Source: Escherichia coli 042 (GTDB lineage: Bacteria; Pseudomonadota; Gammaproteobacteria; Enterobacterales; Enterobacteriaceae). Taken from it: a stretch of 64,000 nt of DNA. Where the stretch lies: the NCBI RefSeq assembly GCF_000027125.1, contig NC_017626.1; one strand, written 5' to 3'. This document shows positions 14,258 through 40,910 of this stretch, in pieces. A program made the translations under genes and the position numbers. Below the pieces are notes generated by a model. The model did not search any database. It worked only from the letters and a program-made list of their open reading frames with translations, and was not told where the DNA came from. The first letter of the stretch is position 1. Every line of letters begins with the position of its first letter.

Positions 14258-14425
14258 CATGCCGGAGGCGACGCTGCGCGTCTTGTCCGGCCCACGAAAA
14301 TGTAGGTCGGATAAGGCGTTTACGCCGCATCCGACATTCGGCGCACCATGCCGGAGGCGACGCTTTGCGTCTTGTCCGGCCTACGAGAATCCAGGTCGGG
14401 TAAGGCGGAGCCGCTCTCCGGCAAA
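14258..14425. repeat. REP/BIME-type extragenic palindromic repeats, two near-identical units
   Basis: Unit catgccggaggcgacgct[g/t]cgcgtcttgtccggcc... occurs twice, plus gccgcatccgacattcggcg; typical E. coli REP sequence. Confidence 0.8.
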
Positions 14426-35015: not shown

Positions 35016-36554
35016 ATGCAACAGCAAAAACCGCTGGAAGGCGCGCAACTGGTCATTATGACGATTGCGCTGTCACTGGCGACATTCATGCAGGTGCTGG
35101 ACTCCACCATTGCTAACGTGGCGATCCCCACTATCGCCGGGAATCTGGGCTCATCGCTCAGCCAGGGAACGTGGGTAATCACTTCTTTCGGGGTGGCGAA
35201 TGCCATCTCGATCCCGCTTACCGGCTGGCTGGCAAAGCGCGTCGGGGAAGTGAAACTGTTCCTCTGGTCAACCATCGCCTTTGCTATTGCGTCGTGGGCG
35301 TGTGGTGTCTCCAGCAGCCTGAATATGCTGATCTTCTTCCGCGTAATTCAGGGGATTGTCGCCGGGCCGCTGATCCCGCTTTCGCAAAGTCTATTGCTGA
35401 ATAACTACCCGCCAGCCAAACGCTCGATCGCGCTGGCGTTGTGGTCGATGACGGTGATTGTCGCGCCAATTTGCGGCCCGATCCTCGGCGGTTATATCAG
35501 CGATAATTACCACTGGGGCTGGATATTCTTCATCAACGTGCCAATTGGCGTGGCGGTGGTGTTGATGACACTGCAAACCCTGCGCGGACGTGAAACCCGC
35601 ACCGAACGGCGGCGGATTGATGCCGTGGGGCTGGCACTGCTGGTTATTGGTATAGGCAGCCTGCAGATTATGCTCGACCGCGGTAAAGAGCTGGACTGGT
35701 TTTCATCACAGGAAATTATCATCCTTACCGTGGTGGCGGTGGTGGCTATCTGCTTCCTGATTGTCTGGGAGCTGACCGACGATAACCCGATAGTCGATCT
35801 GTCGTTGTTTAAGTCGCGCAACTTCACCATCGGCTGCTTGTGTATCAGCCTCGCGTATATGCTCTACTTCGGCGCGATTGTTCTGCTGCCGCAGTTGTTG
35901 CAGGAGGTCTACGGTTACACGGCGACCTGGGCGGGGCTGGCTTCTGCGCCGGTAGGGATTATTCCGGTGATCCTGTCGCCGATTATCGGTCGCTTTGCGC
36001 ATAAACTGGATATGCGGCGGCTGGTAACCTTCAGCTTTATTATGTATGCCGTCTGCTTCTACTGGCGTGCCTATACCTTTGAACCAGGTATGGATTTTGG
36101 CGCGTCGGCCTGGCCGCAGTTTATCCAGGGTTTTGCGGTGGCCTGCTTCTTTATGCCGCTGACCACCATTACGCTGTCTGGTTTGCCACCGGAACGACTG
36201 GCGGCAGCATCGAGCCTCTCCAACTTTACGCGAACGCTGGCGGGGTCTATCGGCACCTCGATAACCACTACCATGTGGACCAACCGCGAGTCGATGCACC
36301 ATGCGCAGTTGACTGAGTCGGTAAACCCGTTCAACCCGAATGCCCAGGCGATGTATAGTCAACTGGAAGGGCTTGGGATGACGCAACAGCAGGCATCAGG
36401 CTGGATTGCCCAGCAGATCACCAATCAGGGGCTGATTATTTCCGCCAATGAGATCTTCTGGATGTCAGCCGGGATATTCCTCGTCCTGCTGGGGCTGGTG
36501 TGGTTTGCTAAACCGCCATTTGGCGCAGGTGGCGGCGGAGGTGGTGCGCACTAA
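35016..36554 (+). CDS. emrB: Multidrug efflux MFS pump EmrB (14-TM), ending in a Gly-rich tail
   Basis: MQQQKPLEGAQLVIMTIALSLATF...; 512 aa. Confidence 0.95.
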   Translation: MQQQKPLEGAQLVIMTIALSLATFMQVLDSTIANVAIPTIAGNLGSSLSQGTWVITSFGVANAISIPLTGWLAKRVGEVKLFLWSTIAFAIASWACGVSSSLNMLIFFRVIQGIVAGPLIPLSQSLLLNNYPPAKRSIALALWSMTVIVAPICGPILGGYISDNYHWGWIFFINVPIGVAVVLMTLQTLRGRETRTERRRIDAVGLALLVIGIGSLQIMLDRGKELDWFSSQEIIILTVVAVVAICFLIVWELTDDNPIVDLSLFKSRNFTIGCLCISLAYMLYFGAIVLLPQLLQEVYGYTATWAGLASAPVGIIPVILSPIIGRFAHKLDMRRLVTFSFIMYAVCFYWRAYTFEPGMDFGASAWPQFIQGFAVACFFMPLTTITLSGLPPERLAAASSLSNFTRTLAGSIGTSITTTMWTNRESMHHAQLTESVNPFNPNAQAMYSQLEGLGMTQQQASGWIAQQITNQGLIISANEIFWMSAGIFLVLLGLVWFAKPPFGAGGGGGGAH

Positions 36555-36564
36555 GTACAACTAA

Positions 36565-36590
36565 GCCAGTTCATTTGAACTGGCTTTTTT
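36565..36590 (+). terminator. Rho-independent terminator after emrB (gccagttca / tgaactggc, then T6)
   Basis: 9-bp stem followed by TTTTTT. Confidence 0.8.
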
Positions 36591-36617: not shown

Positions 36618-37133
36618 CTAAATGTGCAGTTCCTGCAACTTCTCTTTCGGTAGCGCCAGCTCTTCGTTGCTGTTGATGCGTACGTCACGTTCCAGAATGC
36701 TACGCGCAATATCCTGTGCTTCCTGCAACGAGTGCATCTGGTAAGTGCCACACTGGTAGACGTTCAGTTCCGGGATCTGATTCTGATCCTGCACTTTCAG
36801 CACGTCTTCCATTGCCGCTTTCCAGGCATCAGCGACACGCTGCTCATCTGGCGTACCAATCAGACTCATATAAAAACCGGTGCGGCAGCCCATTGGCGAG
36901 ATATCGATAATCTCTACACCATTACCGTTAAGATGGTTACGCATAAAACCAGCAAACAGGTGCTCCAGGGTATGGATCCCTCTTTCTGGCATCACTTCTT
37001 TGTTCGGCACGCAGAAGCGCAGATCGAACACGGTGATTGCGTCGCCATGCGGGGTGTTCATTGTTTTCGCCACCCGAACTGCAGGCGCTTCCATCCGGGT
37101 ATGATCGACTGTGAAGCTATCTAACAACGGCAT
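36618..37133 (-). CDS. luxS: S-ribosylhomocysteine lyase (AI-2 synthase)
   Basis: 171 aa; [14 protein letters not shown]...; HTLEH metal-binding motif. Confidence 0.95.
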
Positions 37134-37168
37134 TTAGCCACCTCCGGTAATTTTTTTAAAAATTTTCT

Positions 37169-37195
37169 GAACTCTTTCTTCCCAGGCGAGTCTGA
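37169..37195 (+). promoter_or_regulatory. Sigma-E type promoter for micA: -35 GAACTC, 16-nt spacer, -10 TCTGA
   Basis: Hexamers read directly, 7 nt upstream of the MicA 5' end; matches the sigma-E consensus (GGAACTT-N16-TCTGA). Confidence 0.7.
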
Positions 37196-37201
37196 GTATA
37201 T

Positions 37202-37274
37202 GAAAGACGCGCATTTGTTATCATCATCCCTGAATTCAGAGATGAAATTTTGGCCACTCACGAGTGGCCTTTTT
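37202..37274 (+). ncRNA. micA: sRNA MicA (SraD), a sigma-E-dependent Hfq-binding antisense regulator of outer-membrane protein mRNAs
   Basis: GAAAGACGCGCATTTGTTATCATCATCCCTGAATTCAGAGATGAAATTTTGGCCACTCACGAGTGGCCTTTTT recognised; terminal hairpin ggccactc/gagtggcc plus T-run; lies in the luxS-gshA intergenic region. Confidence 0.9.
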
Positions 37275-37282
37275 CTTTTCTG

Positions 37283-38866
<1,584 letters not shown>

Positions 38867-40182: not shown

Positions 40183-40259
40183 TGGTGCATCCGGGAGGAT
40201 TCGAACCTCCGACCGCTCGGTTCGTAGCCGAGTACTCTATCCAGCTGAGCTACGGATGC
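40183..40259 (-). tRNA. tRNA-Arg (anticodon ACG), 77 nt
   Basis: Reverse complement GCATCCGTAGCTCAGCTGGATAGAGTACTCGGCTACGAACCGAGCGGTCGGAGGTTCGAATCCTCCCGGATGCACCA. Confidence 0.93.
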
Positions 40260-40322
40260 ATCGGGAAAATTTATTTTACTGCTGATATTGATATCGCTAC
40301 TAAAGCCATATCAAGTAAGAGA

Positions 40323-40399
40323 TGGTGCATCCGGGAGGATTCGAACCTCCGACCGCTCGGTTCGTAGCCGAGTACTCTATCCAGCTGAGCTACGGATGC
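40323..40399 (-). tRNA. tRNA-Arg (anticodon ACG), 77 nt
   Basis: Identical to the other tRNA-Arg copies; 63-bp short spacer before it. Confidence 0.93.
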
Positions 40400-40461
40400 A
40401 TCGGGAAATTTATTTTACTGCTGATATTGATACCGCTACTAAAGCCATATCAAGTAAGAGA

Positions 40462-40538
40462 TGGTGCATCCGGGAGGATTCGAACCTCCGACCGCTCGGT
40501 TCGTAGCCGAGTACTCTATCCAGCTGAGCTACGGATGC
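40462..40538 (-). tRNA. tRNA-Arg (anticodon ACG), 77 nt
   Basis: Identical copy; 62-bp short spacer before it. Confidence 0.93.
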
Positions 40539-40602
40539 ATCGGGAAACTTACTTTACTGCAGATTTTTTGATACCGCTACTAAAGCCGTATCAAGTAAGA
40601 GA

Positions 40603-40737
40603 TGGTGCATCCGGGAGGATTACTCGCCTTGCGGCTCGCCCTTCGGGCCGTTGCTAAAGCAACGTTATCCTCCCTGGTGCCTGCGGTTATTACCGCCACC
40701 TCTTCCATACCTTCATCGCTAAAGGTTACGGAGAATA
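40603..40737 (-). repeat. Long spacer element copy B: 19-nt duplicate of the tRNA-Arg 3' end (40603-40621) plus a ~116-bp structured element
   Basis: tggtgcatccgggaggatt equals the first 19 nt of each tRNA footprint. The element contains the palindromes cgttgct-aa-agcaacg and gcgg-ttatta-ccgc. Confidence 0.75.
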
Positions 40738-40814
40738 TGGTGCATCCGGGAGGATTCGAACCTCCGACCGCTCGGTTCGTAGCCGAGTACTCTATCCAGC
40801 TGAGCTACGGATGC
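40738..40814 (-). tRNA. argV: tRNA-Arg (anticodon ACG), 77 nt; the copy adjacent to serV
   Basis: Identical copy, 3 bp from tRNA-Ser. Confidence 0.9.
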
Positions 40815-40817
40815 AAA

Positions 40818-40910
40818 TGGCGGTGAGGCGGGGATTCGAACCCCGGATGCAGCTTTTGACCGCATACTCCCTTAGCAGGGGAGCGCCTTCAGCCTCTCGG
40901 CCACCTCACC
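40818..40910 (-). tRNA. serV: tRNA-Ser (anticodon GCU), 93 nt with long variable arm
   Basis: Reverse complement GGTGAGGTGGCCGAGAGGCTGAAGGCGCTCCCCTGCTAAGGGAGTATGCGGTCAAAAGCTGCATCCGGGGTTCGAATCCCCGCCTCACCGCCA. Confidence 0.92.

Follow-up and report, generated by a model that had tools for sequence, protein, structure and literature searches.

A known small RNA gene, micA, between luxS and gshA in Escherichia coli: packing of the locus and its conservation across Enterobacterales

The window analysed here, a 64,000-nucleotide stretch of the Escherichia coli 042 genome, contains the luxS and gshA genes side by side on the minus strand, with an intergenic gap of 149 bp. This gap harbors a promoter of the sigma-E type and a short structured RNA, which lies between the two genes on the strand opposite to both (Table 1). 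Comparison of the whole window with Rfam 15 recovered a match to the MicA family (RF00078) at 37202-37273 (+), whose score of 83.9 bits exceeds the gathering score of 41 (E = 1.4e-11) and which covers the model from its first to its last position (1-75 of 75). Between 37100 and 37300 (201 bp) the sequence is 100% identical to E. coli K-12 MG1655, whose coordinates correspond to those of the window plus 2,777,600; for the surrounding 801 bp the best RefSeq match is 99.9% identical, not 100%. The curated MG1655 record (NC_000913.3) lists the ncRNA micA at 2814802-2814874, equivalent to 37202-37274, with the same spacing to luxS and gshA as in the window; the comparison with published MicA/SraD coordinates proposed in the preliminary description thus shows agreement. 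The host strain of the window is not K-12; at this locus it shows no difference from the MicA/SraD gene of K-12 (b4442, RF00078), being the same gene with the same neighbours, spacings, promoter and terminator.

Table 1. Coordinates of the features at the luxS-micA-gshA locus, in window numbering
Feature	Position	Strand	Basis
luxS CDS (S-ribosylhomocysteine lyase, 171 aa), ATG at 37133	36618..37133	-	ORF list; MG1655 luxS 2814218-2814733
Putative luxS Shine-Dalgarno sequence GGAGG	37141..37145	-	Read from sequence; ~80% conserved (114 enterobacterial sequences)
AT-rich element TAATTTTTTTAAAAATTTTCT upstream of the micA -35 box	37148..37168	+	Read from sequence
micA sigma-E-type -35 box GAACTC	37169..37174	+	Sequence, conservation, published 16-bp spacer
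micA sigma-E-type -10 box TCTGA	37191..37195	+	Sequence, conservation, PMC1851643
MicA (SraD) small RNA, 5' end G37202	37202..37277	+	RF00078, MG1655 annotation, Term-seq, fold
Single-stranded 5' seed, predicted to pair with the ompA translation-initiation region	37208..37225	+	RNAduplex; unpaired in Rfam consensus
Long luxS 5' leader antisense to micA	37215..37465	-	PMC2956633; start base and primers checked in window
MicA stem-loop 1	37224..37245	+	Rfam consensus structure, minimum-free-energy fold
MicA intrinsic terminator: hairpin and U-rich tail	37252..37279	+	Terminator scan, invariant stem
gshA 3' untranslated tail, Term-seq end in the MicA hairpin loop	37261..37282	-	PMC7815308
gshA CDS (glutamate-cysteine ligase, 518 aa, TTG start), stop TGA 37285-37283	37283..38839	-	ORF list; MG1655 gshA 2814883-2816439

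MicA has been known since 2001. We assign the plus-strand segment from 37202 to ~37277 to micA, the gene of the MicA (SraD) small RNA, and regard this as the best explanation of the region as a whole, with a probability of about 97%; none of the results speaks against it. The sequence, the locus and the arrangement are already known and published, and they are conserved; the preliminary description was right to call the arrangement a known one. The support obtained here comprises identity, geometry, conservation and seed complementarity, and the sigma-E dependence, the action through Hfq, the processing by RNase III and the mapped RNA ends come from the literature.

The 3' end of MicA is placed at slightly different positions by the different sources: at 37273 by the Rfam match, at 37274 by the RefSeq annotation of MG1655, at 37275 by the preliminary description with its 74-nt RNA, and at 37277 by Term-seq, which detected this end (2814877) in all three of the growth conditions (Adams et al. 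2021, PMC7815308 supplementary file 1). These ends leave respectively 9, 8, 7 and 5 nt before the gshA stop codon. Hence, the distance of 8 nt given in the preliminary description is correct with the RefSeq end, and its own 74-nt RNA would leave 7 nt.

The list of open reading frames includes an ATG-initiated frame of 48 aa at 37200-37346 (+), so that a small protein, instead of a non-coding RNA, could be considered as the product of the region. This frame is rejected because its ATG (37200-37202) straddles the transcription start, such that the MicA RNA does not carry the A and the U of the start codon. The frame also crosses the terminator and continues antisense into gshA, its stop codon is not contained in an RNA that ends at 37277, and the region matches a covariance model of a structured RNA with the E-value given above. 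The likelihood of a protein-coding role is accordingly negligible.

The micA promoter is laid out as GAACTC, a 16-nt spacer, TCTGA and a 6-nt discriminator leading to the transcription start at G37202. It thus combines a -35 element containing AAC, a 16-bp spacer, a -10 element of the form TCnnA with its invariant C, and about 6 bp to +1, and it is positioned exactly 6 bp upstream of the MicA 5' end defined by the covariance model. A promoter GAACTC-N16-TCTGA pointing away from luxS had been proposed at the outset; its coordinates hold, and its geometry matches that described by Udekwu and Wagner (2007), who reported a 16-bp spacer, a 6-bp discriminator and a -10 box identical to that of rpoH P3 (PMC1851643). 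The same study described a conserved AT-rich element that precedes the -35 box, the absence of detectable MicA in a delta-rpoE strain and the induction of MicA by rpoE overexpression (PMC1851643). Within the AT-rich element, the T-run at 37151-37157 is 80-100% conserved in an enterobacterial alignment of 114 sequences. When 106 unique upstream sequences, representing ~117 Enterobacterales species, were compared without gaps and anchored at +1, AAC at -32 to -30 and TC..A at -11 to -7 were found in 105 of them, and the T, C, T and final A of the -10 box were invariant in 105-106 of the 106. The bare motif, counted with up to one mismatch, does not exceed chance in the 64-kb window, with 1 occurrence against 0.61 expected and at least one occurrence in half of the shuffled sequences; what supports the promoter is hence its position, its conservation and the literature. 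From this promoter micA would be transcribed in the direction away from luxS.

MicA is predicted to fold into two hairpins (-20.5 kcal/mol, z = -2.94), with an A/U-rich linker and a Rho-independent terminator with a U-tail, a predicted Hfq-binding module. Among the 114 sequences, which were collected by an exact 25-nt MicA seed, variation is confined to the loops, with no change in the terminator stem or stem-loop 1; since the stems are invariant, the hairpins offer no information from covariation. When MicA nucleotides 1-30 were queried with RNAduplex against the ompA leader, taken from MG1655 as ompA lies outside the window, nucleotides 7-30 paired with the leader just upstream of the AUG at -23.2 kcal/mol, and 9 of 500 shuffled sequences gave an equally good duplex. 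The result is in line with the known interaction between MicA and ompA. Assisted by Hfq, the unpaired 5' portion of MicA would pair with the ribosome-binding regions of ompA and of other envelope mRNAs, and such pairing would shut these mRNAs down during envelope stress.

RybB and MicL, two other sigma-E-dependent, Hfq-binding small RNAs of enterobacteria, share with MicA the class of promoter, a 5' seed and a Rho-independent terminator that also serves as the Hfq-binding site, and all three lower the synthesis of outer-membrane proteins or lipoproteins under envelope stress. RybB and MicL are unrelated to MicA in sequence and are located at other loci, and of the three only MicA is also antisense to the leader of a neighbouring gene.

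The phyletic spread of the locus was assessed by a scan with the 5' 25-mer of MicA, which was required to match exactly, taking one genome per species. It yielded 120 Enterobacterales loci, in which the conservation of MicA nucleotides 3-27 is given by construction, from genera including Escherichia, Salmonella, Citrobacter, Enterobacter, Yersinia, Serratia, Rahnella, Erwinia, Pantoea, Edwardsiella, Hafnia and Tatumella. The order luxS (-), micA (+), gshA (-) is retained in every one of these loci with enough flanking sequence. In 113 of 114 loci, 8-27 nt separate the end of the terminator stem from the gshA stop codon, most often 13 nt, as in E. coli; in loci with 8-10 nt the stop codon abuts the U-tail. 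On the other side, the distance from the MicA +1 to the luxS ATG is 68-91 nt in most loci and rises to 124-180 nt in Kluyvera, Pseudocitrobacter, Pluralibacter and Superficieibacter, where extra DNA lies between the luxS ribosome-binding site and an intact micA promoter block. Given the narrow range of the former distance and the wide range of the latter, the abutment on the gshA side is much more constant than that on the luxS side.

The extra DNA amounts to 55-110 bp, is lineage-specific, and was seen in three loci of Kluyvera, two of Pseudocitrobacter, three of Pluralibacter and an unclassified relative (RIT691), two of Superficieibacter and one further locus (L014); some of these inserts are predicted to form hairpins. 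Two records from the scan deserve separate mention. 'Martelella alba' BGMRC 2031 (NZ_SZPQ01000001.1) is placed in the Alphaproteobacteria by the NCBI taxonomy, yet it carries a typical Enterobacterales luxS-micA-gshA locus with a LuxS that is 86.6% identical to the E. coli protein, and the record is probably misclassified or contaminated. In Enterobacter sp. EA-1 (CP025776.1) the MicA 25-mer is intact and the matches to the flanking genes are fragmentary (luxS aa 43-113 at 60% identity and gshA aa 1-394), owing perhaps to frameshifts introduced during assembly or to pseudogenes.

On the luxS side, the start codon lies exactly 35 bp from the micA -35 hexamer, in keeping with the ~35 bp to the left, on the other strand, estimated in the preliminary description, and is preceded by a GGAGG that we infer to be its ribosome-binding site. 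Three luxS mRNA species, P1, P2 and R3, have been reported (Udekwu 2010, PMC2956633). The first of these starts with a G at -332, equivalent to 37465, from a sigma-S-type promoter inside gshA (PMC2956633). In the window, base 37465 (-) is a G, a sigma-S-type -10 box TATGAT preceded by a C is present at 37478-37473 (-), and the primers KU41A and KU33 of that study map to 37465 and 37198-37217. Both P1 and P2 read antisense through micA, and R3, the shortest species, has its 5' end near 37215 (luxS -82), overlaps MicA by 14-15 nt, and depends on MicA and RNase III for its accumulation (PMC2956633). The earlier remark that a longer luxS leader would be antisense to MicA is therefore established, and indeed understated the case. 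Since luxS is thus also transcribed from within gshA (start 37465), its long leaders are perfectly complementary to MicA, which together with RNase III processes them to the shorter form. A sigma-70-like site at 37224..37195 (-), ATGATA-18-TATACT, was considered as a proximal luxS promoter and rejected, as such sites occur at chance frequency (1 found, 1.1 expected) and it does not fit the published 5' end of R3 near 37215.

These relationships allow the alternative that the main role of MicA is exerted in cis, as an antisense regulator of luxS and possibly of gshA, with the targets in trans being secondary. Its perfect complementarity to all mapped luxS leaders, the dependence of R3 accumulation on MicA and RNase III, and the synteny conserved across Enterobacterales are all compatible with such a role. 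However, overexpression of MicA caused no detectable change in LuxS protein (PMC2956633), a review calls the effect of MicA on luxS unclear (PMC4618604), and the part of MicA that is most conserved is the ompA-pairing seed, albeit in a sample selected through an overlapping 25-mer. Furthermore, the 55-110 bp inserted between luxS and the micA promoter in the four genera named above have left micA undisturbed. Given the above observations, we consider a primarily cis-acting MicA improbable. GadY, located at the 3' end of gadX, is an example of a chromosomal cis-antisense RNA that is processed by RNase III. MicA differs from cis-antisense RNAs of this kind in that its well-established targets are trans-encoded, and a consequence of cis pairing for the LuxS protein is unproven.

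At its distal end luxS converges with emrB, and between the two (emrB ending at 36554 and luxS at 36618) a hairpin of the form AAGCCAGTTCA-TTTG/CAAA-TGAACTGGCTT at 36563-36586 scores as terminator-like on both strands in the terminator scan. A Term-seq 3' end on the luxS strand at 36559 lies 5 nt from the emrB stop codon (PMC7815308). Together, the hairpin and the luxS-strand end close to emrB indicate that luxS is tightly boxed in at both ends.

On the gshA side, the MicA terminator hairpin GGCCACTCACGAGTGGCC at 37252-37269 has the composition GGCCAC-TCAC-GAGTGGCC and is followed at 37270-37279 by the U-rich tail TTTTTCTTTT; the terminator scan reports it on the plus strand only. Transcription of micA would stop at this hairpin and U-tail, a few nucleotides before the stop codon of the convergent gshA gene. 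As the stem begins only 14 nt past that stop codon, gshA transcription is forced into the hairpin. A Term-seq 3' end at 2814861 (-), equivalent to 37261, is listed as 'primary' for gshA and antisense to micA in LB at OD 0.4 (PMC7815308 supplementary file 1), this being one of the three growth conditions and the only one in which it was seen. It falls within the hairpin loop, not at the base of the stem, and overlaps the MicA 3' end at 37277 by 17 nt. The mapped ends of the convergent transcripts (37277 on the plus strand, 37261 on the minus strand) hence overlap at the hairpin, the minus-strand end lying in the loop and being known from a single condition. Read on the minus strand, the hairpin precedes AAAAUUUC, which contains no U-tract, and is not recognised by the terminator scan; termination in both directions is for this reason unsupported. 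Of the claim in the preliminary description that the MicA hairpin is sequence shared with the gshA 3' end, the overlap in sequence (17 nt) is thus borne out, and the notion of a common terminator is not.

The segment 37252-37279 might nevertheless be viewed as primarily a bidirectional intrinsic terminator common to gshA and micA, which would explain the tight packing of the two genes. The necessity for gshA to be transcribed into the hairpin, the 17-nt overlap of the Term-seq ends of the two strands (PMC7815308), the invariant stem, whose distance from the end of gshA is constrained in 113 of 114 loci, and the neighbouring emrB/luxS hairpin, which does score on both strands, could all be accommodated by this proposal. 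Bidirectional or overlapping terminators of convergent genes indeed resemble this locus in having convergent 3' ends that overlap within one hairpin. They differ from it in the following respects: a U-tract was found on one strand of the MicA hairpin and not on both, with a plus-strand tail of TTTTTCTTTT against a minus-strand tail of AAAATTTC; the gshA end is located within the loop and not past the stem; and read-through on the minus strand has been documented, as luxS P1 transcripts demonstrably pass through the hairpin (PMC2956633). With AAAAUUUCAUC following the hairpin on the minus strand and the scan detecting it on the plus strand only, the location of the gshA end in the loop, in one of three conditions, is easier to reconcile with processing or a collision of polymerases than with intrinsic termination. 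Nothing specific on a bidirectional terminator of micA and gshA came up in a literature search. We therefore judge a common terminator to be rather unlikely, and favor the identification of the hairpin as the terminator of MicA.

Two further published signals lie on the gshA side of this hairpin. A very strong 3' end at 37314 (-) (2814914, read count 305,886) appears in the Term-seq data in LB at OD 2.0 only (PMC7815308); it is internal to gshA, 31 nt upstream of its stop codon and 181 nt upstream of luxS, and is not preceded by a hairpin followed by a U-tract. Its distance of 37 nt from the MicA 3' end might fit a head-on collision of polymerases or the processing of the luxS P1 leader. The Rho-termination table of the same study contains a bicyclomycin-sensitive region at 2815245 (+), equivalent to 37645 and antisense to gshA (PMC7815308), which implies plus-strand transcription to ~370 nt past the MicA terminator, by read-through or from another start.

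The constancy of the gshA-side spacing, the invariant stem and the tolerance of 55-110-bp insertions on the luxS side invite a more speculative suggestion, namely that the abutment of the MicA terminator on the gshA stop codon is itself under selection, with convergent micA transcription, or pairing of MicA with the 3' tail of gshA, setting the 3' end of the gshA mRNA. Candidates for such ends would be the one at 37261 in the loop, in exponential phase, and the strong one at 37314, in stationary phase. We hold this to be very unlikely; if it were true, colliding polymerases or cleavage by RNase III would link envelope stress to glutathione synthesis.

Of 5426 complete E. coli genomes, 5421-5423 contain micA at an identity of 95% or above. 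Among 60 RefSeq E. coli records, sampled evenly down the ranking and including a pipeline-annotated copy of K-12 MG1655, none carries a micA feature, and the record of strain C4 likewise has none. The warning in the preliminary description that this RNA is easily missed by ORF-based annotation thus proved apt, given the near-universal presence of the sequence. As micA is missing from the feature tables, it can be disturbed inadvertently when the 5' end of luxS or the 3' end of gshA is deleted or joined to a reporter; in Salmonella, phenotypes of luxS deletions in biofilms have been traced to such a disturbance of micA (PMC4618604). The practical value of the present results lies in this caution about annotation, and they carry little weight as a discovery.

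A natural counterpart of such disturbances was encountered in E. coli R13 (NZ_CP107151.1), in which a 39-bp deletion equivalent to 37184-37222 has taken out the micA -10 box together with the start site and the initial 21 nt of MicA (the ompA-pairing seed), leaving the -35 box and the terminator in place. Judging from the elements lost, this is probably a micA-null allele. Beyond luxS, this genome encodes an RNA ligase family protein and an ATP-binding protein in place of emrB.

The comparison with Rfam also recovered other RNA genes in the window. A match to naRNA4 (RF02564), a REP-derived nucleoid-associated RNA, lies at 14305-14381 (+) and scores 70.4 bits against a gathering score of 59.5. 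On the minus strand, a cluster of five tRNA genes spans 40186-40910, four of them with identical scores and with spacings of ~140-275 nt, and a lone tRNA gene is located at 5998-6070.
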